Program-made: the position numbers and the translations under genes
Shown: positions 43,848-56,032 of the stretch, one piece after another
Numbering within the stretch: the stretch's first letter is position 1
Layout: the number at the start of each line of letters is the position of its first letter
Notes under the pieces: model-generated
Told to the model about the DNA's origin: nothing
Databases searched by the model: none
Seen by the model: only the letters and a program-made list of their open reading frames with translations
Sequence record: ON528726
Origin: Shigella phage ESh16
Strand: one strand, 5' to 3'
DNA: 64,000 nt

Positions 43848-44474
43848 ATGTATGAATACAAATTTGATGTGAGAGTTGGTTCTAAAATAATCAACTGTCG
43901 CGCATTTACTCTTAAAGAATATCTAGAGCTTATTACTGCTAAAAAGAACGGTTCAGTAGAAGAGATCGTTAAAAAGCTAATTAAAGACTGCACAAATGCA
44001 AAAGATTTAAACCGCCAAGAATCAGAACTACTGCTGATTCATTTATGGGCGCATTCTCTTGGAGAAGTTAATCATGAAAACTCCTGGAAGTGCACCTGTG
44101 AAACTGAAATACCAACCCATATAAATCTATTACATACACAAATAGATGCACCAGAAGACCTCTGGTATACACTGGGTGGCATTAAAATTAAGTTCCATTA
44201 CCCTAAAATTTTTGATGATAAAAATATAGCCCACATGATAGTATCATGTATAGAAACGATTCATGCTAACGGTGAAAGCATTCCAGTTGAAGACTTAAAT
44301 GAAAAAGAACTGGAAGATTTATATTCTATCATCACAGAGTCAGATATTGTAGCTATAAAAGATATGCTTTTAAAGCCTACTGTTTATTTGGCTGTTCCAA
44401 TTAAGTGTCCAGAGTGTGGAAAAACTCACGCTCATGTAATAAGAGGACTCAAAGAATTCTTTGAGCTATTGTAA
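43848..44474 (+). CDS. 26: Baseplate hub subunit gp26 (208 aa)
   Basis: Size identical to T4 gp26. Confidence 0.85.
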
Positions 44475-44872
44475 TGGCAAATATTAATAAGCTTTATTCT
44501 GACATTGACCCAGAAATGAAAATGGATTGGGACAAAGATGTTTCAAGATCTCTTGGATTAAGGTCAATTAAAAATAGCCTTTTAGGAATTATTACAACCA
44601 GGAAAGGGTCAAGGCCATTTGACCCAGAATTTGGATGCGATTTATCTGATCAGCTTTTTGAGAATATGACTCCTCTTACTGCTGATACTGTTGAGCGTAA
44701 CATTGAAAGCGCAGTAAGAAACTACGAGCCACGTATTGATAAATTAGCAGTTAATGTAATACCAGTTTATGATGATTATACTCTAATAGTAGAAATACGC
44801 TTTTCAGTCATCGATAACCCTGATGATATTGAGCAGATAAAACTACAACTGGCTTCAAGTAACAGAGTATAA
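44474..44872 (+). CDS. 25: Baseplate wedge subunit gp25 (132 aa)
   Basis: Size identical to T4 gp25; ATG overlaps gene 26 stop. Confidence 0.88.
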   Translation: MANINKLYSDIDPEMKMDWDKDVSRSLGLRSIKNSLLGIITTRKGSRPFDPEFGCDLSDQLFENMTPLTADTVERNIESAVRNYEPRIDKLAVNVIPVYDDYTLIVEIRFSVIDNPDDIEQIKLQLASSNRV

Positions 44873-44938
44873 TGCTTCACGTATAAACGTGGTATAATGA
44901 ATCTAAGTCCATCCAATAACAATTGAATAGAGAACAAT

Positions 44939-45352
44939 ATGAAATTAGAAGATCTTCAAGAAGAATTGAAGAAAGATGTGTTTATAGATTCGACTAAATT
45001 ACAGTATGAAGCAGCTAATAATGTGATGTTATATAGTAAATGGCTCAATAAGCATTCAAGTATTAAAAAGGAAATGCTTAGAATTGAAGCACAGAAAAAA
45101 GTTGCTCTTAAAGCTAAATTAGACTACTACTCGGGACGAGGAGATGGTGATGAATTTAGTATGGACCGTTATGAGAAATCAGAAATGAAGACAGTTCTAT
45201 CAGCTGATAAGGATGTTTTAAAAGTTGATACTTCATTACAATATTGGGGAATTTTATTGGATTTCTGTAGCGGAGCTCTTGATGCTATTAAATCACGCGG
45301 ATTTGCTATTAAGCATATTCAAGACATGCGAGCATTTGAGGCTGGAAAATAA
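44939..45352 (+). CDS. uvsY: UvsY recombination mediator (137 aa)
   Basis: MKLEDLQEELKKDVFIDSTKLQYEAANNVMLYSKWLNKHSS...; size. Confidence 0.95.
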   Translation: MKLEDLQEELKKDVFIDSTKLQYEAANNVMLYSKWLNKHSSIKKEMLRIEAQKKVALKAKLDYYSGRGDGDEFSMDRYEKSEMKTVLSADKDVLKVDTSLQYWGILLDFCSGALDAIKSRGFAIKHIQDMRAFEAGK

Positions 45353-45576
45353 TGAGATATAGCATTGATGATGCTTTTAATTATGAAGAAGAATTCGAAA
45401 CGGAAATTCAATTCTTAATGAAAAAGTATAATCTCAAGCGTCAGGATATTCGTATCCTGGCCGACCACCCATGCGGTGAAGATGTACTTTATGTTAAAGG
45501 AAAATTTGCTGGATATCTTGATGAATATTTTTATTCTAAAGATATGGGCATTGATATGCATATGAGAGTTATATAA
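45352..45576 (+). CDS. uvsY.-1: Hypothetical protein (74 aa)
   Basis: Position and size; ATG overlaps uvsY stop. Confidence 0.6.
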   Translation: MRYSIDDAFNYEEEFETEIQFLMKKYNLKRQDIRILADHPCGEDVLYVKGKFAGYLDEYFYSKDMGIDMHMRVI

Positions 45577-45604
45577 ATAGATATATAATTTAGAGGAGAC
45601 AATC

Positions 45605-45772
45605 ATGTCAGATAAGATTTGCGTTGTCTGTAAAACTCCAATCGATTCTGCATTGGTTGTTGAAACAGACAAAGGTCCTGTACATCCTGGGCCTTGTTAT
45701 AATTACATTAAAGAACTACCAGTTTCAGAAAGTTCGGAAGAACAATTAAATGAAACACAACTTTTGCTATAG
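45605..45772 (+). CDS. uvsY.-2: Small Cys-containing protein (55 aa), below the ORF-track length cutoff
   Basis: Read directly: GAGGAGACAATC then ATG at 45605; MSDKICVVCKTPIDSALVVETDKGPVHPGPCYNYIKELP...; stop at 45770-45772. Confidence 0.5.
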   Translation: MSDKICVVCKTPIDSALVVETDKGPVHPGPCYNYIKELPVSESSEEQLNETQLLL

Positions 45773-45793
45773 TGTGACCTTTAGTCTATAGTT

Positions 45794-45822
45794 TTGGCCC
45801 TTCCTTTTTGGTTGGGCCTTTT
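45794..45822 (+). terminator. Terminator-like hairpin plus T-run between convergent uvsY.-2 and uvsW.1
   Basis: ggccc...gggcc followed by tttttt. Confidence 0.45.
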
Positions 45823-45827
45823 TTAAT

Positions 45828-46058
45828 TTAAAAACTTTCTTCTACTTCATCGTCTGAATCTTCTAATTCAGCTCTTTTTCCTGCCAAAGCATCTCTCACA
45901 GAGATGTCATCAGTATCTTTTAATTCAGTTTCTTTAACTCTTTTCTTATAATAAGCTTCAAGTTCTTCTAGACCTTCTATCGTTTGACAAGAGGCAATTT
46001 TACCCATAAATTCATCAATAGAAGCTTCATAAAGAAATTGTTTAAATTCTAGTAACAT
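45828..46058 (-). CDS. uvsW.1: UvsW.1 small acidic protein (76 aa)
   Basis: MLLEFKQFLYEASIDEFMGK...; immediately downstream of uvsW. Confidence 0.7.
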   Translation of the reverse strand: MLLEFKQFLYEASIDEFMGKIASCQTIEGLEELEAYYKKRVKETELKDTDDISVRDALAGKRAELEDSDDEVEESF

Positions 46059-46083
46059 CTTTTTCTCCAAAGGGCCGAAGCCC

Positions 46084-47592
46084 TTATAAATTAACTGTTT
46101 TCATTACGTAATTAAATTTTTCATCTGCGTAGCGCTGAATACGATCAATGCCGTGTTTTAAAAGATAGTTCAAATGAACATATTTCTTTTTCGTATTAGC
46201 AGATTTTGGCTTAACACCACAATCATCGATGAGGTCCCAGACTGTTGCGATTGTTTTGGAACCATGCTTACGTAATACGCGACCTATTGTTTGCAATACA
46301 ATAATTTTAGATTTAACACCGTGTGCTAAAACAACGTGATGCAGATTTTTAACTGAAATACCGGTAGAAAATACACCATAACTAGCTACTATAATTATTC
46401 CTTTACCGTTTTCAGCTAAGGTTTTCATTATATTGCGGGTTTCGGTATCAACTTCCCCTGATACGTAATAAACTTTATCGTATTCATTTTTAATTAAATC
46501 GAAAATAGCTTTACCGTGCGATACGTGTTTAAACATGACAAAAGCGTTTTCATCTTTTTGCGCAAGCTTAATAGCTAATTTAGCGATCCATTTATTTCTT
46601 TTACTGAGTCCAGTGATAATTTTTATTTCTTCTTGGTAAGTTTTTCCCTTTAATTTAGTAGTGAACTCATCGGGATAGCGAAGAAAAATACTATTAATTT
46701 TTAACTCAGTTACTTGTCCATCTTCCATTAATTTAGAAGTCGTTACTGGCTTAAATATTTCGCCAAACATTCCAACATACTGCATGATATTAGCTTTGCC
46801 ATCACGTAATGAACCAGACAAACCAAATTTGAACATGCAGTTATTTAAACCTGATATGATAGATGAAATACTTTTTCCTGTAGCAAGATGGCATTCATCA
46901 TTCATCATCATTCCAAACTGTGAGAACCATTCTTTTGGTTGTTTTACTACAGTTTGCCATGTACCAACAACGACTGGTGCATCATTTTTATATTTATCAT
47001 CTTTTGATGCTCCACCGCCAATTTTCTTTATCATTGCATGACTGAATAAACGATAGTCAACAAAGTCATCAGCCATCTGAGTTGTCAGAGCAGTTGTTGG
47101 AACAATGATAAGAATTTTACCTTCATAATTTTCCAAATAATATCGAGCAAGCAAAGCTTGAATTAAAGATTTACCTGCAGATGTTGGAAGATTAAGAATT
47201 CTACGACGATTAACTAATCCTTCGAACACTGCATCTTTTTGATACCAGTGTGGTTCAATTCTTTTATTTCCTGAATAGATTTCTAATTTAGAAAGCCATT
47301 CATCAAAATCTTTTCTTGATAATTCTTCTTTTTCGTTAATTTGCGGGTCAATCCAGGCTTTATAGCCAAAGTTATTACAGAACTTTTTAATTTGCCCAAC
47401 TAAGCCGAATGGAAGAAGGCGATTATAATCTAAAAGACGGATTCGTCCATCCCAGTTGCCATATCTGAAGCGAGGATTAAACCTATATCCATCGGCCTCA
47501 AACGAAAAGAAATCTCTTAATTCGTGGAACGTGCTCTCTTCACAATCGATGCGTACATGACTGAAGTCGTGAAAATGTACTTTAATATCCAT
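46084..47592 (-). CDS. uvsW: UvsW DNA/RNA helicase (502 aa)
   Basis: Walker A LPTSAGKS, DECH box MMNDECHLATG; size. Confidence 0.93.
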   Translation of the reverse strand: MDIKVHFHDFSHVRIDCEESTFHELRDFFSFEADGYRFNPRFRYGNWDGRIRLLDYNRLLPFGLVGQIKKFCNNFGYKAWIDPQINEKEELSRKDFDEWLSKLEIYSGNKRIEPHWYQKDAVFEGLVNRRRILNLPTSAGKSLIQALLARYYLENYEGKILIIVPTTALTTQMADDFVDYRLFSHAMIKKIGGGASKDDKYKNDAPVVVGTWQTVVKQPKEWFSQFGMMMNDECHLATGKSISSIISGLNNCMFKFGLSGSLRDGKANIMQYVGMFGEIFKPVTTSKLMEDGQVTELKINSIFLRYPDEFTTKLKGKTYQEEIKIITGLSKRNKWIAKLAIKLAQKDENAFVMFKHVSHGKAIFDLIKNEYDKVYYVSGEVDTETRNIMKTLAENGKGIIIVASYGVFSTGISVKNLHHVVLAHGVKSKIIVLQTIGRVLRKHGSKTIATVWDLIDDCGVKPKSANTKKKYVHLNYLLKHGIDRIQRYADEKFNYVMKTVNL

Positions 47593-47594
47593 AA

Positions 47595-48212
47595 TTATGC
47601 CTTACTAAATTTGCCTTTAGAATCTCTTTTCATGAGACGACCTTTAATAAATCCGTCGGGAATAATACCGTCTGGTTGTATTAATTTATTTATTGCGCCA
47701 TTATTGACCCAAAAAGTTCCTGTTGTAGTCGGTTTGACTTTACATCCTTTTCTGGACTTTCTATTAGGATGAACCATCCCTTTTACAAATCCTTCTGGAA
47801 CAAGTTCTCCAGGCTTAATAAAAATATTTTTAGTTCCATTAGTGTAACAAGTTGTACCTAATACCGTGCCCGGTGAGTTTTCAAATCTCTTAGCGGAAGA
47901 TTCTTTCATCTTTGCTATAACCTCTGTAGTCATAACAATTCCACCAATTCCACCAGGTTTCATATTATAATAATTTTTGCTTTTTATCAGTTCAGGAGTT
48001 ATAATTTCTTCTTCATACATGTACGCTTCTTCGGAAGTTTTAAACTCTTTTAGTATTTTTCTAGAGAAATTGTTTTCACCATATTTCTTTATAGCCTGCT
48101 GAATTGCCTTACCGGAACCAAGGTAGCCATCATTCAGGTCGTCAGTAGAGTGCTTTCCTATATACTTTTTACCATTTATTAGATTTGTTGTTTCATATAC
48201 AAAGTGGTACAT
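47595..48212 (-). CDS. segE: GIY-YIG homing endonuclease (205 aa), SegE-like
   Basis: N-terminal GIY-YIG module HFVYETTNLINGKKYIGKHS; C-terminal repeated P-x-GF-x-KG DNA-binding-like motifs; position between uvsW and inh. Confidence 0.75.
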   Translation of the reverse strand: MYHFVYETTNLINGKKYIGKHSTDDLNDGYLGSGKAIQQAIKKYGENNFSRKILKEFKTSEEAYMYEEEIITPELIKSKNYYNMKPGGIGGIVMTTEVIAKMKESSAKRFENSPGTVLGTTCYTNGTKNIFIKPGELVPEGFVKGMVHPNRKSRKGCKVKPTTTGTFWVNNGAINKLIQPDGIIPDGFIKGRLMKRDSKGKFSKA

Positions 48213-48261
48213 ACTATTTTCCGAGTAATAAATATATCTATATTTATACTGAGGAAATATT

Positions 48262-48942
48262 ATGATAGATAAAGATTATATTGCAGAGCTGAAGGCTCTT
48301 GATGATAATAAAGAAGCTAAAGCTAAATTAGCTGAATATGCTGAACAGTTTGGTATAAAAGTCAAAAAGAATAAATCTTTTGATAATATCGTTAATGATA
48401 TTGAAGAAGCCCTCCAGAAGCTCGCTAGTGAACCTATGCCAGAGACTGATGGGTTATCTATTAAAGACTTAATTGATGCTGCTGATGCTGCAGACGGATT
48501 AAAATATGACGATGAAGAAGTCAATCCAGAGGCAGCACTTCTGATTGATTCTCCGGTTAAATCTGACATTAAAATTGAAGTAGTAGAAACGGATAAAATT
48601 CCTGAAAATACCGATGTTTTGATTGAAGATACTCCTTTTGTTGAAGAAAAATTCGAGCAGGCTGTAGCTGAGATTATTGAATCTGAAAAGCCGTCCGTAT
48701 TTACTCTTCCGGAAAACTTTAGCCCAAATCTTCAGCTGATTGGAAAAAATCCAGGATTCTGCACTGTTCCTTGGTGGATTTACCAATGGATTGCTGAAAC
48801 TCCAGATTGGAAATCTCACCCAACTAGTTTTGAACATGCGTCTGCACACCAAACTTTATTTAGCTTAATTTATTACATTAATCGCGACGGATCAGTTCTA
48901 ATTCGTGAAACACGTAATTCTTCTTTCGTAACATTAAAATAA
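48262..48942 (+). CDS. inh: Inh, inhibitor of prohead protease (226 aa)
   Basis: Assigned by position upstream of hoc and size; acidic N-terminal half. Confidence 0.65.
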   Translation: MIDKDYIAELKALDDNKEAKAKLAEYAEQFGIKVKKNKSFDNIVNDIEEALQKLASEPMPETDGLSIKDLIDAADAADGLKYDDEEVNPEAALLIDSPVKSDIKIEVVETDKIPENTDVLIEDTPFVEEKFEQAVAEIIESEKPSVFTLPENFSPNLQLIGKNPGFCTVPWWIYQWIAETPDWKSHPTSFEHASAHQTLFSLIYYINRDGSVLIRETRNSSFVTLK

Positions 48943-48951
48943 GGATAACTT

Positions 48952-50658
48952 ATGGCTTTTACAGTTGATATAACTCCTAAAACACCTACTGGAGTTATAG
49001 ATCAGACTCAGCAGTTTACTGCTACACCCAGTGGTCAAACTGGAGATGGACCTATTACATATGCTTGGACTGTAGACGACGCTCCACAGGAAGAAACGTC
49101 AGCAACTTTTAGTTATGTACTAAAAGGACCTGCCGGTCAAAAGACTATTAAAGTAGTTGCAACCAATCAAGTTGCAGAATCTGAACCTGAAACAGCAGAA
49201 ATTAGTACAACTATCACAGTTCAAAATAAGACACAAACAACTACTTTAGCTGTAACTCCTGGTAGCCCTGATGCTGGAGTGATTGGAACTCCAATTGAAT
49301 TTACCGCTGCCTTAGCTTCACAGCCATCAGGTGCAAACGCTACGTATCAATGGCACGTTGACGGTTCTCCTGTAGACGAAGCAACTTCTGCTACATTCAA
49401 TTACACTCCTGCCACAAGCGGAGTTAAAAAAATCAAGTGTATAGCTCAAGTAACCGCGACTGATTACGATACATTGAGCGTTACTTCTAATGAAGTGTCA
49501 CTGACTGTTAATAAAAAGACGCAGACGACTACCTTGGCAGTAACTCCTGATAGTCCTCCAGCTGGAGTGATTGGAACAGCCGTTGAATTTACTGCTGCCT
49601 TAGCTTCTCAACCTGATGGGGCATCTGCTACGTATCAGTGGTATGTAGATGATTCTCAAATTGGTGAAGCGACTTCTGCTACATTTAGCTATACTCCAAC
49701 TACAAGTGGAGTAAAAAGAATTAAATGCGTAGCGCAAGTAACAGCAACAGATTATGACGCAAAAACAGTTACTTCTAATGAAGTATCATTAACAGTTAAT
49801 AAGAAGACACAGACAACTACGTTAGCCGTAACTCCTGCTAATCCTGCTGCCGGAGTAATTGGAACCCCAGTTCAATTTACTGCTGCCTTGGCTTCACAGC
49901 CACCAGGAGCGTCTGCTACGTATCAGTGGTATGTTGACGGTTCTCTGGTCGATGGAGAAACTACTACTACATTTAACTATACTCCTACCACAGTTGGAGC
50001 TAAAACAGTTAAGTGTGTAGCGCAAGTAACTGCAGAAAATTACAATGAAAAGGAAGTTACTTCTAATGAAGTATCATTGACAGTTAATAAGAAAACAATG
50101 AATCCACAGGTTACATTGACTCCTCCTTCTATTAACGTTCAGCAAGATGCTTCGGCTACATTTACGGCTAATGTTACGGATGCTCCAGAAGAAGCACAAA
50201 TCGAATACTCATGGAAGAAAGATTCTTCTCCTGTAGAAGGGTCAACTAATGTATACACCGTTGATACATCATCTATTGGAAGTCAAACTATTGAAGTTAC
50301 TGCAACTGTTACCGCTACTGATTATGATAGCAAAACTATCACAGCAGAAGGCCAAGTTCAGGTAACTGATAAAGTTGCTCCAGAACCAGAAGGTGAATTG
50401 CCTTATGTTCATCCTCTTCCACATCGTACTTCAGCTTATATCTGGTGCGGTTGGTGGGTTATGGATGAAATCCAAAAAATGACTGAAGAAGGTAAAGATT
50501 GGAAAACTGAAGATCCAGATAGTAAATACTATCTGCATCGTTACACTCTTCAGAAGATGATGAAAGACTATCCAGAAGTTGATGTTCAAGAATCACGCAA
50601 TGGATACATCATTCATAAAACTGCTTTAGAAACTGGTATCATCTATACCTATCCATAA
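48952..50658 (+). CDS. hoc: Hoc, highly immunogenic outer capsid protein, expanded form (568 aa) with five Ig-like domains plus capsid-binding C-terminal domain
   Basis: Tandem 96-aa Ig-like repeats (KTQTTTLAVTP...VTSNEVSLTVNK); C-terminal Trp-rich domain; position. Confidence 0.88.
   Translation: MAFTVDITPKTPTGVIDQTQQFTATPSGQTGDGPITYAWTVDDAPQEETSATFSYVLKGPAGQKTIKVVATNQVAESEPETAEISTTITVQNKTQTTTLAVTPGSPDAGVIGTPIEFTAALASQPSGANATYQWHVDGSPVDEATSATFNYTPATSGVKKIKCIAQVTATDYDTLSVTSNEVSLTVNKKTQTTTLAVTPDSPPAGVIGTAVEFTAALASQPDGASATYQWYVDDSQIGEATSATFSYTPTTSGVKRIKCVAQVTATDYDAKTVTSNEVSLTVNKKTQTTTLAVTPANPAAGVIGTPVQFTAALASQPPGASATYQWYVDGSLVDGETTTTFNYTPTTVGAKTVKCVAQVTAENYNEKEVTSNEVSLTVNKKTMNPQVTLTPPSINVQQDASATFTANVTDAPEEAQIEYSWKKDSSPVEGSTNVYTVDTSSIGSQTIEVTATVTATDYDSKTITAEGQVQVTDKVAPEPEGELPYVHPLPHRTSAYIWCGWWVMDEIQKMTEEGKDWKTEDPDSKYYLHRYTLQKMMKDYPEVDVQESRNGYIIHKTALETGIIYTYP
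49228..50091 (+). repeat. Three tandem near-identical 288-bp direct repeats inside hoc (one Ig-like domain each)
   Basis: Unit boundaries at 49228, 49516, 49804, 50092 by codon counting; units nearly identical at DNA level. Confidence 0.85.
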
Positions 50659-50662
50659 TCAT

Positions 50663-50690
50663 AAGGGGCTTCTGCCCCTTTCTTCATTTT
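50663..50690 (+). terminator. Rho-independent terminator after hoc
   Basis: aaggggcttctgcccctt then T-rich tract. Confidence 0.6.
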
Positions 50691-50747
50691 GAAAGCACAC
50701 AAAACACACTCAGAAAATGATGTATATAATGGCATCAACTCGATAAC

Positions 50748-50963
50748 ATGAGATTGATTATGAGAACTGAGGTTGTGGTGTTTACTCTTCATGAGTCTGG
50801 AAAGTCATTCATTGAAATTGCTCGTGAATTGAACTTACAGGCAAAGGAAGTGGCTGTATTATGGGCTCGAGCTATGACTGCTAAGAATAAATTTGAAACT
50901 CGAGAAAAAGTTGTCTATAGAAAAAGACATATTAATAAAAAGGTGAAAAATGGAACAGTATGA
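50748..50963 (+). CDS. 24.3: Hypothetical protein (71 aa)
   Basis: Position between hoc and rnlB; start uncertain (ATG 50748 or 50760). Confidence 0.5.
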   Translation: MRLIMRTEVVVFTLHESGKSFIEIARELNLQAKEVAVLWARAMTAKNKFETREKVVYRKRHINKKVKNGTV

Positions 50964-51228
50964 TCTTTATGAAAATGAATCCTTTGCTAATCGATTACGC
51001 GAAAAAGCACTTAAAAGTAAACAGTTTAAGCTAGAGTGTTTTATTAAAGATTTTTCGGAACTTGCTAATAAAGCAGCTGAACAAGGTAAAACATATTTTA
51101 GTTATTATTGTACTGCTCGCGATAAATTGATTACTGAAGAAATTGGTGATTGGCTGAGAAAAGAAGGATTTAGCTTTAAAGTCAATAGTGATCAGCGTGA
51201 TGGTGATTGGTTAGAAATTACATTTTGA
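50950..51228 (+). CDS. 24.2: Hypothetical protein (92 aa)
   Basis: Position between hoc and rnlB. Confidence 0.5.
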   Translation: MEQYDLYENESFANRLREKALKSKQFKLECFIKDFSELANKAAEQGKTYFSYYCTARDKLITEEIGDWLRKEGFSFKVNSDQRDGDWLEITF

Positions 51229-51237
51229 GGATTAATT

Positions 51238-52242
51238 ATGTTTAAAAAGTATAGCAGTCTTGAAAATCATTACAACTCTAAATTTATTGAAAAACTTTAC
51301 AGTTTAGGATTGACTGGCGGCGAATGGGTAGCTCGTGAAAAGATTCACGGCACAAATTTTTCATTGATTATTGAGCGTGATAAAGTAACTTGTGCTAAAC
51401 GCACTGGTCCTATTCTTCCTGCTGAAGATTTCTTTGGGTATGAAATTGTTTTAAAGAATTACGCTGATTCCATTAAAGCAGTACAAGATATTATGGAAAC
51501 TTCAGCGGTTGTATCTTATCAAGTCTTTGGCGAATTCGCTGGACCTGGCATTCAGAAGAATGTCGATTATGGCGATAAAGATTTTTATGTATTTGACATT
51601 ATTGTTACTACAGAAAGTGGTGATGTGACTTATGTCGATGATTATATGATGGAATCATTCTGCAATACATTTAAATTTAAAATGGCTCCACTTTTAGGTC
51701 GCGGTAAATTTGAAGAACTTATTAAATTGCCAAATGATTTAGATTCCGTCGTCCAAGATTATAATTTTACGGTAGACCACGCTGGATTAGTTGATGCAAA
51801 TAAATGCGTTTGGAATGCCGAAGCAAAAGGCGAAGTATTTACCGCTGAAGGATATGTATTGAAACCTTGTTATCCTTCTTGGCTGCCTAATCGCAATCGT
51901 GTAGCCATCAAATGCAAGAACTCTAAATTTAGTGAAAAGAAAAAGTCTGATAAGCCTATTAAAGCTAAAGTTGAACTGTCAGAAGCTGATAACAAATTGG
52001 TGGGAATTTTAGCTTGTTACGTTACACTGAACCGAGTAAATAACGTTATTTCTAAAATTGGCGAAATTGGTCCAAAAGATTTTGGAAAGGTGATGGGACT
52101 AACTGTTCAAGATATTTTGGAAGAAACTTCTCGTGAAGGTATTACTCTAACTCAAGCGGATAGTCCTTCTTTGGTTAAAAAGGAATTAGTTAAAATGGTA
52201 CAAGATGTACTTCGTCCGGCTTGGATTGAATTGGTAAGTTAA
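51238..52242 (+). CDS. rnlB: RNA ligase 2 (334 aa)
   Basis: [41 protein letters not shown]... with KxHG adenylation motif. Confidence 0.96.
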
Positions 52243-52246
52243 ATAA

Positions 52247-52268
52247 AAAGGGACCGAAAGGTCCCTTT
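52247..52268. terminator. Bidirectional terminator between convergent rnlB and gene 24
   Basis: aaagggaccgaaaggtcccttt flanked by A-run and T-run. Confidence 0.65.
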
Positions 52269-52271
52269 GTT

Positions 52272-53555
52272 TTATTCATCAATGATAATTTTTGGTAGCT
52301 TAACACCTAATAAAACAGACAAATCTGAACGACCCGCCATTTTATCCATGTCTCCACCGTCAATTACTCTTGCTTCTTTTTCATCTTTTGCTACAGTGTA
52401 AGGATTTGCAGATAAAGCATATCTAACTAATAAACCGATAGATGGCTGCAAACTTTCTGGATCAACTACAACTTTAAATGCACCTACATGTTCAGGGTCA
52501 TCTAAGTCAAGACCTTCTGTATACGGAGCATAGAAAATTGACCCAACAATTTCTTTTTCACCGATATTTTCTACTACGCCAACTATTACATAATCCAATG
52601 GGCTGTTGGTATCGCAATAAAGCGGTAAACCATTAGCTAAGAACCCGTAGGCATTTTGTGAAAGATATTTATCATCTTCTGGTTTATGTTTTAACCAACC
52701 TGATGCAGCAAGAATCGCAGCGGCACGAGCTGAAGCAACACAGAACGTTGCTGTATAAGTTGATTCTTTCTGAATATGTGAAACCATTTCACACACCATT
52801 CGGTATAATGAACGACCAGCTTCAGGTGCAGATGCATAACTCAAATCAATGAATCCAGTATCAGTAATTCCTGTAACTTTATAGCGTTTTGATACTGTAA
52901 TCAAAGACTGTAGAATATCTTTATTGATTTCATCCGCCATTTCAGTTGCAAGCAAATCTTCCAAGAAATTAGGAGCATCGAATCCATTTGCTTCTAAATC
53001 TTGTGCTAATTCGACTGTGATGCCAGTTTTAAGTTTACGAGATTTAACTGCGGTTTGCCATTTATTAATCTGGAATCTAGCATCCGCAATTTCACTATCA
53101 GAGCTTTCAAATTTGCTTGTTACTGCAGCATCAGAAAATAGACGAACCTTTAAAAGAACGATTGCAATCTGAAGAGCTAATTCTAAATCACTTTCTTCAA
53201 TATCAGCAAATGGTGTATTTTCTAATACTTTATAAACGATATTATTATATTTGAATAAATCGCCTTTATTGAGAGTTAATTTAGACTCTTCTGTTAATTC
53301 TGTGATTTGTTCTCGGTCTACGTATCCAGCTTCGCCAGCGTAAGTAGCACCAGTTTTAAATGTAAATTCGTTATCTGGGTTAAGGTATTTGATACCATAA
53401 AAAGCAGCAACAGGTTGATTAGTTCTTTGCGTTGCTACAATGTCAGAATATATTAATTTAGTGGTAGCGCGAGTCAAAGCAACGAGATTTGGGCGACCGA
53501 TTGAGTTGCTATTCGTTGTGGTTGATTCGCGCAGAAGTTCGTTGATTTTAGCCAT
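52272..53555 (-). CDS. 24: Capsid vertex protein gp24 (427 aa)
   Basis: Size identical to T4 gp24; synteny next to 23. Confidence 0.93.
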   Translation of the reverse strand: MAKINELLRESTTTNSNSIGRPNLVALTRATTKLIYSDIVATQRTNQPVAAFYGIKYLNPDNEFTFKTGATYAGEAGYVDREQITELTEESKLTLNKGDLFKYNNIVYKVLENTPFADIEESDLELALQIAIVLLKVRLFSDAAVTSKFESSDSEIADARFQINKWQTAVKSRKLKTGITVELAQDLEANGFDAPNFLEDLLATEMADEINKDILQSLITVSKRYKVTGITDTGFIDLSYASAPEAGRSLYRMVCEMVSHIQKESTYTATFCVASARAAAILAASGWLKHKPEDDKYLSQNAYGFLANGLPLYCDTNSPLDYVIVGVVENIGEKEIVGSIFYAPYTEGLDLDDPEHVGAFKVVVDPESLQPSIGLLVRYALSANPYTVAKDEKEARVIDGGDMDKMAGRSDLSVLLGVKLPKIIIDE

Positions 53556-53582
53556 TGCGCTTTCCTTTTGGTTTATATGATT

Positions 53583-53590
53583 TATTTATA
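53583..53590 (-). promoter_or_regulatory. Late promoter for gene 24
   Basis: Plus-strand tatttata about 28 nt upstream of gene 24 start. Confidence 0.55.
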
Positions 53591-53607
53591 CCATAAAAAC
53601 AACTAAA

Positions 53608-53623
53608 GGGACCCGAAGGTCCC
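53608..53623 (-). terminator. Terminator hairpin after gene 23 (CUUCGG loop on minus strand)
   Basis: gggacccgaaggtccc with T-rich tract following on minus strand. Confidence 0.6.
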
Positions 53624-53638
53624 TTAAATCGTCAAAGA

Positions 53639-55204
53639 TTAGATACCTTTAACATATACACGGCGGAAGTAAGCGTTTTTACCAAGGCTATTCAGAATAG
53701 AAGGCATACCGCTCTGGATGCGAGAAGCCGGAGCCTGAGCAGCGGATTCTGCAAATGGGTTGATACCGATACCGTAACGAGTTTTGAATCCCATTACTGG
53801 TTGGAAGTTCTTCGGATCGGAACCACGCAGCGGAGTCAGAGCTACATATGGAGCGTAGTAAATACCAGCATCCATTTCGTTCGGACCTTTATAACCTACA
53901 GTGAAATAATCCTGTTTAGCATACTGGTCGATATATACACGGTATTTACCACCCAGAACACCAGCAAATACTGACTTGGTAGTATCAGTGTTAAAGCCGG
54001 TAGCCAGACCCTGTGCAGCATAAGAAATGCCAGTATCAACTGAAGCCAGAACGTTAACTACGTTACGGGAAGCGATAATGAAGTTACCTTCACCACGACC
54101 AGTCTGACGAGCAATTTCAACTGCTTCTTTGTCAATCTGGAACAACAGAGCTTTAAAGGATTCACCCGCCCAGCGAGCACCACGAATATCAATCGGATCC
54201 TGGAAGTCAAATACACCAGCTTTAGAACCCGGAGTCAGGGTCATACCAGATTTACCAACCTGAGCTGAGTAGTTAATCCAATCAACAACTTCGCGGTTGA
54301 TTTCCAGCATGATTTCGGTAGCCAGAATACCAGACAGTTCAGCATCAGCATCCATACCGTGAACAGCGCGGAGGTCTTGTGCTAATTCGATAGAGTAAGC
54401 AGCTTTCAGCTGACGAGATTTAGCTTCGATAACTTGTTTATCGATACGGAAGCCCATTTCATTCCATGGGTTATCGGTAGAACCGTTGAAACCTTCCTGA
54501 AGTTCAGCGATAGAAGTAGCCATACCTTCAGCGATTTCTACCAGTACACCAGCTTCCATTTGTTTCTTAATTTCAGCATCTAATTTAGCAGCGTCAGTTG
54601 CGCTTGCACTAATTGTTACTTGAGCAGAAGCTTGCAGATACACAGTACCAGTGTCCTGGAAGAAGTGAGTATAGATATCACCTACTGTGGTTTGTGTGCT
54701 AGCAGCCAGAGCTGTGAATTTCTTAGCAGCACCCTGACCAGAGAACATTGCATCTGGACCATACATTGGGTGGAATGCTTCTTTAGCGCCGGCAGCGATT
54801 GGGTCTTTACCATATACTGCGCGCAGTGCGAATACCTGACCAGTCGGGCTGTTCATCGGCTGAACACCGCAAATATCGAAAGCAATCAGGTTAGGAATAG
54901 CACGACGTACCATACCCATAACAGCTGGGCCAATCTGAGTTACTGCGCCAGAAGTTTGACCAGCAGCGATGTTAGTAGCGTTGTAACCGTGGTCACCACC
55001 GATTTCAGCTTCTGTTAAGAAAGAACCGAACGCCTGAGCGATTTTTTCGTCTTTGTATTCTGGAGCTGTCTGGAAATCTTTTTCCTGGTTTTCAAAGATT
55101 TTAGCGATAATCGCTTGTTTGCTATTAGCAATTTCCGGTAAACCTTCACCTTCCAGTAATGGCTTCCATTTGTTCAAAAGTTCAGCTTTAGTTTTGATAG
55201 TCAT
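53639..55204 (-). CDS. 23: Major capsid protein gp23 (521 aa)
   Basis: Size identical to T4 gp23; synteny 20-67-68-21-22-23-24. Confidence 0.97.
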   Translation of the reverse strand: MTIKTKAELLNKWKPLLEGEGLPEIANSKQAIIAKIFENQEKDFQTAPEYKDEKIAQAFGSFLTEAEIGGDHGYNATNIAAGQTSGAVTQIGPAVMGMVRRAIPNLIAFDICGVQPMNSPTGQVFALRAVYGKDPIAAGAKEAFHPMYGPDAMFSGQGAAKKFTALAASTQTTVGDIYTHFFQDTGTVYLQASAQVTISASATDAAKLDAEIKKQMEAGVLVEIAEGMATSIAELQEGFNGSTDNPWNEMGFRIDKQVIEAKSRQLKAAYSIELAQDLRAVHGMDADAELSGILATEIMLEINREVVDWINYSAQVGKSGMTLTPGSKAGVFDFQDPIDIRGARWAGESFKALLFQIDKEAVEIARQTGRGEGNFIIASRNVVNVLASVDTGISYAAQGLATGFNTDTTKSVFAGVLGGKYRVYIDQYAKQDYFTVGYKGPNEMDAGIYYAPYVALTPLRGSDPKNFQPVMGFKTRYGIGINPFAESAAQAPASRIQSGMPSILNSLGKNAYFRRVYVKGI

Positions 55205-55222
55205 TTGTGTTAACCTTTAAAA

Positions 55223-56032
55223 TTAGAAACGAGATGCGACTTTCGCATATACACTTACAATATCTTCTGCACCAGGTGCAGCTTTATCTTCTACAGCTTC
55301 AGTGACGAAATTCAGTCCGGCTGCTTCAGTATCAGGAGTATTTATACCCTCAGTAATAGTGCTTTCATCTTTATTAGACTTCTTCACCATTTCTACGATG
55401 GCACTCAATTTACTTGAGAATGCATCTGAATAATCCATACCTTCGACCAGAGCAGAGACTTTTTCTTTTTGAGACTCAGTCAGATCTTTAGTACTTTCGC
55501 TCAATGCCACTTCACGCTGCACATAATTGATATATGCGTCACGCTTATTGAGTTCTTCGAACAGACGAGCTGATTCTTCTTTATGTTCTTGCAGCTCTTC
55601 TTCCATTTCAGCTACAACATCAACTGATTCTTCTGGAACAACAACGTTGTGTTCAACAAAGAGCTCTTTTAATCCACCTAGCATGGATTCAAACAGTTCG
55701 GCTTTGATGCCTTTATCAACTGCTAATTTATTTTCAGCGAGCCATTCTTTTGCAAGATGGTCGATGAATTTAGAAGCTTGCTCAGCAATTTTCTTCTCAG
55801 CTTTTTCTTCGGCTTCTTCTTTATTTTTTTCTACTTCTTCTTCTGCTTTTTCAGCAATTTTAGCGATATGAGATTCAGCTAATTTAACGGCGTGCTGCTT
55901 GACGGTAGCTTCGAATACAGTGCCGAAAGTTTCTTTTGCTTCCGGAGAAATATTAACTGATTCGAAAATACTATCAAGAGCAACGGAAGCATCAATTTTT
56001 TGCGCTTCAGCAATCAGTTGTTCTTTAAGCAT
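55223..56032 (-). CDS. 22: Prohead core scaffold protein gp22 (269 aa)
   Basis: Glu/Lys/Ala-rich coiled-coil; size identical to T4 gp22. Confidence 0.92.
   Translation of the reverse strand: MLKEQLIAEAQKIDASVALDSIFESVNISPEAKETFGTVFEATVKQHAVKLAESHIAKIAEKAEEEVEKNKEEAEEKAEKKIAEQASKFIDHLAKEWLAENKLAVDKGIKAELFESMLGGLKELFVEHNVVVPEESVDVVAEMEEELQEHKEESARLFEELNKRDAYINYVQREVALSESTKDLTESQKEKVSALVEGMDYSDAFSSKLSAIVEMVKKSNKDESTITEGINTPDTEAAGLNFVTEAVEDKAAPGAEDIVSVYAKVASRF

Follow-up and report, generated by a model that had tools for sequence, protein, structure and literature searches.

The hoc gene carried by the stretch of DNA analysed here (64,000 nucleotides, hereafter the window) is, with a probability of roughly 0.85, a long natural length variant of the known Tequatrovirus capsid fibre, built of old and diverged Ig-like cassettes and belonging to a recombined allelic series with one, two or three copies. 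As a copy-number allele of Hoc, it is an ordinary member of an already described kind. Indeed, that Hoc joins a conserved C-terminal anchor to Ig-like domains in varying number is a published principle (PMC10385173, PMC11853027), and other domain counts with a conserved anchor occur in Serratia phage Muldoon (1174 aa, 10 Ig domains), in PhiPNJ-9, whose Hoc lacks domain 3, and in RB49. These are distant sequences, whereas the window gene is part of a recombining series found in genomes that are otherwise 96-97% identical. In the literature searched, which did not extend to subscription journals, no description was found of this series (376, 472 and 568 aa) or of a duplication of domain 2 in Tequatrovirus Hoc.

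A preliminary description had named the gene hoc and contrasted its product of 568 aa with the 376 aa of T4, and the comparison with T4 Hoc confirms both statements. T4 Hoc from the PDB (5vf3_Z; further entries include 8t1x and 8t9r) matches the window protein with E=9.4e-249 in a phmmer alignment that extends to the final residue, the gene lies at the same position in T4, both products are acidic PKD/Ig-like fibres, and the hoc genes of relatives are annotated 'Hoc-like head decoration'. The whole window shares 100% nucleotide identity with Shigella phage ESh34, and ESh36 encodes an identical Hoc protein. The product of the T4 gene (1131 bp) aligns to residues 1-190 and 285-568 of the window protein and thus lacks two of its 96-aa units: T4 Hoc has three Ig-like domains, with a single cassette of the domain-2 type, whereas the window protein has five, with three such cassettes, followed by a T4-type C-terminal capsid anchor (Table 1). 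The two proteins also differ in net charge (-29 in the window, -14 in T4) and in the number of NEVSLT segments (three and one, respectively).

The earlier proposal that five Ig-like domains precede the capsid-binding domain and lengthen the protein is borne out by Pfam and by structure prediction. The protein scores 54.6 bits against Pfam PKD (cut-off 23.5) and also exceeds the cut-offs of PKD_4, PKD_3, Ig_2 and BiPBP_C, while Ig_3 (29.2 bits against 30) and I-set, which match at aa 385-469 within Ig-like domain 5, stay just under theirs. The AlphaFold2 model contains five all-beta blocks (pLDDT about 80-93). Its C-terminal domain is predicted with low confidence (pLDDT 38-66), probably owing to a shallow alignment, so the fold assigned to it rests on the 97% sequence identity with T4; dN/dS relative to T4 is 0.05 in this domain. 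A Foldseek search of the PDB with the whole model returned multi-Ig/MG strings as top matches, at low TM-scores that indicate fold class only, as would be expected of a flexible beads-on-a-string model.

Table 1. Coordinates of hoc, its domains and neighbouring features in the window
Feature	Position	Strand	Description
segE	47595..48212	-	Free-standing homing endonuclease of the GIY-YIG type, located between uvsW and inh; Pfam SegE_GIY-YIG, E=5.9e-9
inh (hoc.1)	48262..48942	+	Upstream of hoc and co-oriented; annotated inh in RB69
hoc CDS	48952..50658	+	ORF of 568 aa, stop codon included; head decoration (highly immunogenic outer capsid) protein
Ig-like domain 1 (aa 1-88)	48952..49215	+	Orthologue of T4 Hoc D1, 69/88 aa identical; all-beta, pLDDT 83-92
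Repeat unit 1 (aa 89-184)	49216..49503	+	PKD/Ig-like, type B, the usual first-slot type
Repeat unit 2 (aa 185-280)	49504..49791	+	PKD/Ig-like, type F; closest of the units to T4 domain 2
Repeat unit 3 (aa 281-376)	49792..50079	+	PKD/Ig-like, type E; holds the best Pfam PKD stretch (aa 292-361)
Ig-like domain 5 (aa 377-472)	50080..50367	+	Orthologue of T4 Hoc domain 3, 84/96 aa identical
Predicted C-terminal capsid-binding domain (aa 473-568)	50368..50655	+	93/96 aa identical to T4 Hoc 281-376
Candidate terminator hairpin and T run	50663..50690	+	5 nt past the hoc stop; 7-bp stem with 5 GC pairs and a T-rich tail; consensus match only

Tandem Repeats Finder reported a single array (49216-50097; period 288, 3.1 copies, 77% matches, 0% indels, score 1009), and a second repeat search returned 3 copies at a spacing of 288/288. 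At 49216-50079 this array consists of three in-frame tandem units of 288 bp, each encoding one 96-aa PKD/Ig-like domain; the interval given in the preliminary description (49228-50091) delimits this array 12 nt further on, both registers being in frame. The three 288-bp repeats reported there are thus real, but their supposed near-identity is not: the units share 75.0, 78.1 and 78.5% of their nucleotides in pairwise comparison (75.7-79.2% in the 49228-50091 register) and 79, 72 and 75% of their amino acids, and the longest in-register run of identity is 17-24 nt for any pair of units and only 17 nt for all three. Divergence at synonymous sites among the units (dS 0.53-1.33, dN/dS 0.10-0.35) is greater than that separating the window gene from T4 hoc over the domains that are not repeated (D1, D5 and C; dS 0.25-0.40), and the duplications are therefore old. 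The three units are old paralogues, which split before the present T4-like coliphage hoc alleles did, and all three are held under purifying selection. Predicted loops hold a disproportionate share of the variable positions (20/44 versus 12/52, p=0.03). Ig-like domain 5 shares about 35% amino acid identity with the repeat units, which indicates an older duplication.

These values bear directly on the origin first suggested for the array, namely that unequal recombination had recently duplicated units in tandem and left an unstable repeat whose copy number shifts readily within the phage population. Such an origin would fit the exact 288-bp period, in frame and without indels, and past unit-precise unequal exchange is indeed implied by the exact 288-bp multiples that separate relatives. 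It is nevertheless highly improbable, given the low identity and short identical runs of the units, their dS above the divergence from T4 hoc and the existence, for every unit, of a closer orthologue in another phage: the window units are not closer to each other (75-78% nucleotide identity) than to units of other genomes (93-100%). Moreover, no pair of units exceeds 83% amino acid identity inside any of the natural multi-copy alleles sampled (0/53 within-allele pairs), so that no fresh duplication is seen among them. On these three grounds (inter-unit dS, closer orthologues elsewhere, the within-allele maximum of 83%), recent duplication and concerted evolution were both rejected. The related claim that the locus is prone to copy-number change holds on the evolutionary scale and in mixed infections, but a clonal stock is unlikely to be unstable, since perfect identity between units is limited to 17-24 nt.

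For every unit, some other phage carries a far closer counterpart than the array itself does. Unit 1 is 95.1% identical in nucleotides to unit 1 of the two-copy allele of ESh33, against 75-78% to window units 2 and 3. Unit 2 is identical to ESh33 unit 2 (288/288 nt) and shares 89.2% of its nucleotides with the single T4 unit, 83/96 residues being the same as in T4 D2. Unit 3 is 92.7% identical to the sole unit of the one-copy vB_Eco_Geo allele, its 3' half being the same in both. The window D1 likewise follows vB_Eco_Geo (99.2%); since the ESh33 D1 is only 91.7% identical, the window allele is a mosaic different from that of ESh33, which also lacks the third (type E) cassette. In allele comparisons with the window hoc, blocks without any mismatch alternate with blocks of dense mismatches, and among 162 units all four haplotypes were observed at 304 of 496 informative site pairs. 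Judged from these sequence patterns, recombination among alleles has reshuffled the unit sequences heavily, the window allele being one of the resulting mosaics.

The preliminary description had also raised an assembly artefact, that is, a repeat collapsed or expanded during assembly, here of the ESh34 genome, as a result that would overturn its reading. The ESh34 record (ON528744) is indeed flagged UNVERIFIED and carries no annotation. However, the units differ at about one position in four, which allows unambiguous placement of short reads, the frame is intact with purifying selection on each unit, and ESh36 encodes the identical protein. The three-unit, 1707-bp gene is furthermore present, ungapped and with 94-100% nucleotide identity, in at least 13 deposited records from 12 named phages (YUEEL01 having been deposited twice), several of them named independently of the ESh series, as well as in several metagenome and Logan contigs. 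Its presence in at least ten further named phages means that the array is not an assembly artefact, and this explanation was rejected as next to impossible. The other three-cassette alleles, of 568-570 aa (YUEEL01, TOPO13, ECML-123-2, OMNI12, ESh26, KMB26, EC101, UGKSEcP1/2 and T4_ev151), have the same length and slot order as the window allele, to which they align over 1707 bp without gaps at 94-98% identity, but they differ from it in their middle and last cassette types (BCE, BCF and BCH, against BFE in the window).

Within Tequatrovirus, Hoc falls into discrete classes of 376, 472 and 568 aa, which correspond to one, two and three units of the T4 domain-2 type, and the hoc genes of relatives differ in length by exact multiples of 288 bp. 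A uniform domain count among related phages had been named beforehand as an observation that would contradict the early reading; the comparison across relatives was made, and the count is not uniform, since related phages differ in it. Among the best 120 of 696 homologues, cluster representatives of 376, 472 and 568-570 aa numbered 81, 29 and 8, respectively. In 60 evenly spaced records out of 678 phage records, the hoc span was about 1131 bp (1131-1137) in 35, 1419 bp in 15 and 1707 bp in two or three, the three-copy form being the rarest class of this sample; these frequencies, being based on a sample and on score-ranked cluster representatives, do not amount to a full census. An IMG/VR scan yielded 21 loci, among which close alleles were too scarce for a census at the nucleotide level. 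No allele with four or more cassettes was present among the best 120 of the 696 homologues, the longest protein being of 570 aa (8000 candidates were scored, and rare longer alleles are possible), nor was any truncated or degenerate cassette seen in these 120 representatives. The two-cassette Hoc (472 aa; for example in ESh33, HP3, ime09, phiD1 and pSs-1) shares the architecture and cassette types of the window protein, and in the genomes whose backbones resemble the window most (96-97% over 12 kb), hoc is of the two- or one-copy form. With regard to unit types, the first slot is always of type B in three-cassette alleles, while one-copy alleles carry A, C, E, G or B.

A comparison from a neighbouring genus is provided by RB69 (Mosigvirus), whose Hoc of 471 aa is encoded at the same locus and runs from D1 through two middle Ig-like units to a final Ig domain and the C-terminal domain. 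Although RB69 belongs to a different genus, the last ~310 nt, including the terminator-like stretch, are 97% identical to the window, whereas the Ig part reaches only about 51% nucleotide identity. The two middle units of RB69 are only 43% identical to each other and are thus much older paralogues. All three window units match unit A of RB69 better (51-53%) than its unit B (41-43%), which argues that the cassettes multiplied inside the Tequatrovirus lineage. It is possible, although clearly the less probable course, that a hoc with three or more cassettes was ancestral in Tequatrovirus, that the one-copy T4 form arose by repeated unit-precise deletions and that the window retains the old state. 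Such a history would agree with a paralogue divergence older than that of the alleles, with the several unit types of one-copy alleles and with the four Ig-like domains of the neighbouring genus; in addition, the unit resembles a first-slot unit in its 5' part and a later-slot unit in its 3' part in 11 of the 81 one-copy representatives, the footprint expected of deletion by unequal crossover. Gene conversion, however, can yield the same hybrid patterns. The proximity of the window units to RB69 unit A, the rarity of the three-copy class and the appearance of the window allele, which looks built from two-copy (ESh33) and one-copy (Geo) blocks, also speak against retention of an ancestral state. 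Slot-type analysis found only one strictly slot-diagnostic position, and relaxed criteria gave suggestive hybrid patterns without clean single breakpoints; as the units reticulate, neither slot assignment nor the units themselves discriminate between gain by unequal exchange and loss from a three-copy ancestor.

The order of genes around hoc (uvsW-segE-inh-hoc-24.3-24.2-rnlB-24) matches annotated T4 and RB69. Pfam Phage_Inh_N/C were matched by an ESh36 gene identical to the window inh, the stop codon of which overlaps the Shine-Dalgarno region of hoc (AAGGA at 48941-48945). No exact copy of the T4 late promoter TATAAATA was found immediately in front of inh or hoc on the + strand. Downstream, the putative terminator lies in a stretch conserved with RB69, and a 'terminator' is annotated at the matching place in Yersinia phage fPS-2. 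In T4, segE is annotated at the same position as here, and it is listed at inh/uvsW, with demonstrated mobility, in a review (PMC2988022); this neighbour may be a driver of the exchange of hoc alleles.

With regard to function, the C-terminal domain of T4 Hoc binds the gp23* hexamer, as seen by cryo-EM (PMC10385173). On the strength of its identity with that domain, the C-terminal domain of the window protein would attach a single monomer to the middle of every gp23* hexamer. The two extra domains repeat the PKD/Ig cassette (96 aa, 288 bp) of the T4 domain-2 type. Homologous and unequal recombination in mixed infections has moved cassette sequences from allele to allele and from slot to slot. 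If each extra domain adds roughly 40-45 A to the fibre of about 180 A in T4, the window fibre would measure about 260-270 A; it would be longer and more acidic, and would present the domain-2 surface, including NEVSLT, three times. Ig-like Hoc domains have been linked to adherence, either to mucin glycans or to the surfaces of bacteria (PMC11853027, PMC10385173). In PhiPNJ-9, the Hoc of which is more distant, residues S183/L184/T185 of domain 2 are reported to bind MUC2 (PMC11853027), binding of MUC2 fucose in a related Hoc being ascribed to the NEVSLT segment, and small differences in Hoc alter adhesion (PMC11853027, PMC13390416). The longer fibre would extend the reach and raise the avidity of an adhesion that is weak and reversible, whether to mucin glycans or to bacterial surfaces, and the early suggestion that fibre length affects adherence to mucus or host is plausible.

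The extra domains could instead be neutral spacers in a dispensable protein, the copy-number classes drifting without selection. Hoc is non-essential in the laboratory, with a marginal effect on capsid stability (PMC10385173), and all three classes occur on nearly identical backbones. Neutrality is nonetheless unlikely in view of the dN/dS of 0.10-0.35 and the intact frame of all units despite their large dS, the concentration of variable sites in predicted loops, the discreteness of the classes, with no degenerate or truncated cassette in the 120 representatives, and the published data on mucin binding and adhesion by Hoc cited above. A stronger selective proposal, put forward tentatively and itself rather doubtful, is that the series is a maintained and shuffled polymorphism that would tune fibre length, charge and loop binding or antigenic surfaces to niches such as mucus, host surfaces or antibody, with exchange possibly promoted by segE and possibly reaching across genera. 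Exchange between genera is suggested by an RB69-like cassette found in one Tequatrovirus-type allele and by the 97%-identical C-terminal anchor module shared with RB69.

Hoc is the best-studied mediator of mucus adherence in phages and a widely used display platform. The hoc repeat is genuine, yet it is old, stable and ordinary, and to handle it as a hypervariable or artefact-prone locus would be a mistake. The natural series of one, two and three copies on near-isogenic T4-like phages offers a ready test of fibre length and valency against mucus retention, aggregation, immunogenicity and therapy.

The product of the hoc ORF aligns with T4 Hoc (376 aa; PDB 5vf3, 8t1x and others) over residues 1-190 and again over residues 285-568 (E=9.4e-249); exactly two 96-aa units are therefore absent from T4 Hoc. 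The Pfam PKD score is 54.6 bits (cut-off 23.5), PKD_4, PKD_3, Ig_2 and BiPBP_C also pass their cut-offs, and Ig_3 and I-set score slightly under theirs. The gene order, namely uvsW, a SegE-type GIY-YIG endonuclease, inh, hoc, DUF2774 (24.3), 24.2, RNA ligase 2 (rnlB) and gene 24, is that of T4 and RB69, and the identification as Hoc in the preliminary description is thus upheld. An AlphaFold2 model built on an alignment of 26 homologues comprises five all-beta domains (pLDDT about 80-93), which are D1, the three repeat units and the orthologue of T4 domain 3 (D5), followed by a C-terminal alpha/beta region of low confidence (pLDDT 38-66). The C-terminal 96 aa share 93 of 96 residues with the T4 capsid-binding domain. 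The earlier count of five Ig-like domains before the capsid-binding domain is therefore correct, and the product is a Hoc of the T4 type whose anchor is conserved. Foldseek returned generic Ig/MG strings (complement C3, MDGA1, Dscam, five-domain ICAM-1). D1, the units and D5 share about 35-38% aa identity (27% for D1 versus D5); the entire Ig string therefore stems from older duplications.

Features of the hoc region of Shigella phage ESh16
Feature	Position	Strand	Remarks
segE-type GIY-YIG homing endonuclease	47595-48212	-	flanked by uvsW and inh; 740 bp upstream of hoc; T4 has the same arrangement
hoc ORF	48952-50658	+	1707 bp, 568 aa
Tandem array	49216-50097		Tandem Repeats Finder: period 288, 3.1 copies, 77% matches, no indels, score 1009
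Unit 1	aa 89-184		
Unit 2	aa 185-280		
Unit 3	aa 281-376		
C-terminal domain and terminator region	50395-50708		matches RB69 sequence L026, about 2495-2823
Hairpin AAGGGGC-TTCT-GCCCCTT, then T-rich tail	50663-50690	+	GC-rich, 5 nt past hoc stop

The array is the only strong one reported by Tandem Repeats Finder for the ORF region, and a gapless repeat finder gave 3 copies with spacings of 288/288. It lies far beyond chance expectation. The period is divisible by three and keeps the reading frame of the ORF, so every unit accounts for 96 aa. The three in-frame 288-bp copies reported earlier are real; their former placement at 49228-50091 is a register 12 nt off. They had also been called near-identical, which does not hold: pairs of units share 75.0, 78.1 and 78.5% nt identity (75.7-79.2% in the 49228-50091 register) and 79, 72 and 75% aa identity, and the longest in-register identical run per pair is 17-24 nt. 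Only one stretch of at least 12 nt is common to all three units, namely 17 nt at the unit 3' end, GTTACTTCTAATGAAGT, coding for VTSNEV where one domain meets the next.

A recent, unstable duplication, as had been proposed, is likewise contradicted. Indeed, dS between the units is 0.53-1.33 (dN/dS 0.10-0.35, Nei-Gojobori), versus 0.25-0.40 between the window and T4 in the unrepeated parts of hoc; the paralogues thus arose before these hoc alleles diverged, and purifying selection still acts on all three units. Every unit is far closer to a unit of another phage than to its neighbours in the array: unit 2 agrees at 288/288 nt with unit 2 of the two-copy ESh33 allele, unit 1 shares 95.1% nt identity with ESh33 unit 1, and unit 3 shares 92.7% with the single unit of vB_Eco_Geo. 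None of 53 unit pairs from the 38 multi-copy alleles sampled exceeded 83% aa identity within one protein, and the sampled diversity appears to hold no recent duplication. All three units are nearer to the first middle unit of RB69 (51-53% aa identity) than to the second (41-43%), and they therefore multiplied within the Tequatrovirus lineage. In short, the feature is real, and the descriptive view of an expanded Ig array differing among relatives is right; the mechanistic view is wrong.

Hoc homologues fall into discrete length classes in steps of exactly 96 aa, and the domain count does vary among relatives: of the 120 best-scoring clusters, 81 are in the 376-aa class, 29 in the 472-aa class and 8 in the 568-570-aa class, and none is longer than 570 aa. 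In 60 evenly spaced records out of 678 matching phage records, the hoc span was about 1131 bp (1131-1137) in 35, 1419 bp in 15 and 1707 bp in 2-3. An assembly artefact is excluded because the ungapped 1707-bp gene recurs at 94-100% identity in at least 13 deposited records, which represent 12 named phages (YUEEL01 was deposited twice); carriers include YUEEL01, TOPO13, ECML-123-2, OMNI12, ESh26, KMB26, EC101 and UGKSEcP1/2. Shigella phage ESh34 (ON528744, Tequatrovirus) matches the window at 100% identity in hoc and across the 12 kb around it, and ESh36 encodes an identical Hoc protein. In the closest 12-kb backbones after ESh36 (96-97%), hoc has two unit copies or one, so copy number varies independently of the genome around it.

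Several public records called for separate remarks. ON528744 is flagged UNVERIFIED, and a single annotated feature spans the genome, leaving hoc and all its neighbours unannotated. In ESh36 (ON528746), 12689 bp correspond to the 12001-bp query (window 44000-56000), so an insertion of ~690 bp, which could be another mobile endonuclease gene, lies somewhere within the region. MG010123 ('Staphylococcus phage SAJK-IND', 32 kb) matches the full 12 kb of window 44000-56000 at 97.1% and looks like a Tequatrovirus fragment that was mislabelled or is a contaminant. Finally, in records including FriedrichMiescher MZ501066, vB_EcoM_G29 MK327940, 101117BS1 MZ234018 and UFV11 OP555982, the annotation of hoc is split into two CDSs ('Hoc part 1 / part 2', 'PKD domain protein x2'), which suggests that this non-essential gene is truly disrupted there or that the genomes contain sequencing errors.

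Clustering of 163 units at 13% aa distance gave about 11 types, designated by letters in slot order. The window allele reads B-F-E. The other three-copy alleles combine the types as BCE, BCF or BCH; with two copies, the combinations DA, BC, BE, BF, DC, BA, CE or DI occur, and alleles with one copy mostly have type A, some having C, E, G or B. In nucleotide comparisons with ESh33, Geo, an IMG/VR allele and T4, zero-mismatch blocks alternate with dense-mismatch blocks in the window. All four haplotypes occur at 304 of 496 informative site pairs (162 units), so the unit history is reticulate. Furthermore, in 11 of the 81 one-copy representatives the 5' residues are first-slot-like and the 3' residues later-slot-like; such hybrids could be the expected trace of unequal-crossover deletions, and gene conversion could equally produce them. 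Common variable positions are found in 20 of 44 predicted loop versus 12 of 52 predicted strand positions (Fisher p=0.03), chiefly in patches at unit positions 50-59 and 82-88. In P0042, a two-copy Tequatrovirus-type Hoc from Logan contigs, unit 2 shares 80% identity with the RB69 first middle unit and 54% with its own first cassette, and looks like an import from a Mosigvirus-like hoc. In mixed infections, hoc alleles could be exchanged in part through SegE-driven double-strand-break repair that co-converts the flanks.

RB69 belongs to a different genus (Mosigvirus), yet the ~310 nt covering the hoc 3' end and hairpin are about 97% identical to the window. Identity is much lower in the flanks (hoc Ig part 51%, inh 73%, 24.3 71%, rnlB 73%), and the C-domain DNA is 97.1% identical to RB69 versus 94.9% to T4. 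This suggests either that the capsid-anchor module was exchanged between genera or that an unusual constraint acts at the nucleotide level. The hairpin, conserved in RB69, looks like an intrinsic terminator.

A variable Ig-like string on a conserved C-terminal anchor is a published Hoc trait (PMC10385173, PMC11853027): PhiPNJ-9 Hoc has two Ig domains and that of Serratia phage Muldoon ten, versus five here. Database proteins of 568 aa are already labelled 'Hoc-like head decoration'. No paper on the series of one, two or three domain-2 cassettes or its mosaicism within Tequatrovirus was found in a literature search of incomplete coverage. T4 Hoc is non-essential and acidic; 155 monomers decorate each head, one in the middle of every gp23* hexamer, where they project ~180 A, and their Ig-like domains give weak adhesion (PMC10385173). 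By analogy, the ESh16 protein would attach to the capsid in the same way, would reach roughly 80-90 A beyond T4 Hoc, and would display the domain-2 surface in three copies. It has a pI of 4.49 and a net charge of -29, versus 4.74 and -14 for T4 Hoc. NEVSLT occurs at aa 180, 276 and 372, versus once in T4; the S-L-T of this segment is a reported MUC2-fucose contact in PhiPNJ-9 Hoc (PMC11853027). The longer three-copy fibre would be expected to adhere to mucus or surfaces with more reach and avidity, possibly with altered antigenicity. Specialists are unlikely to be surprised by these findings; the natural allelic series is a handy experimental tool.
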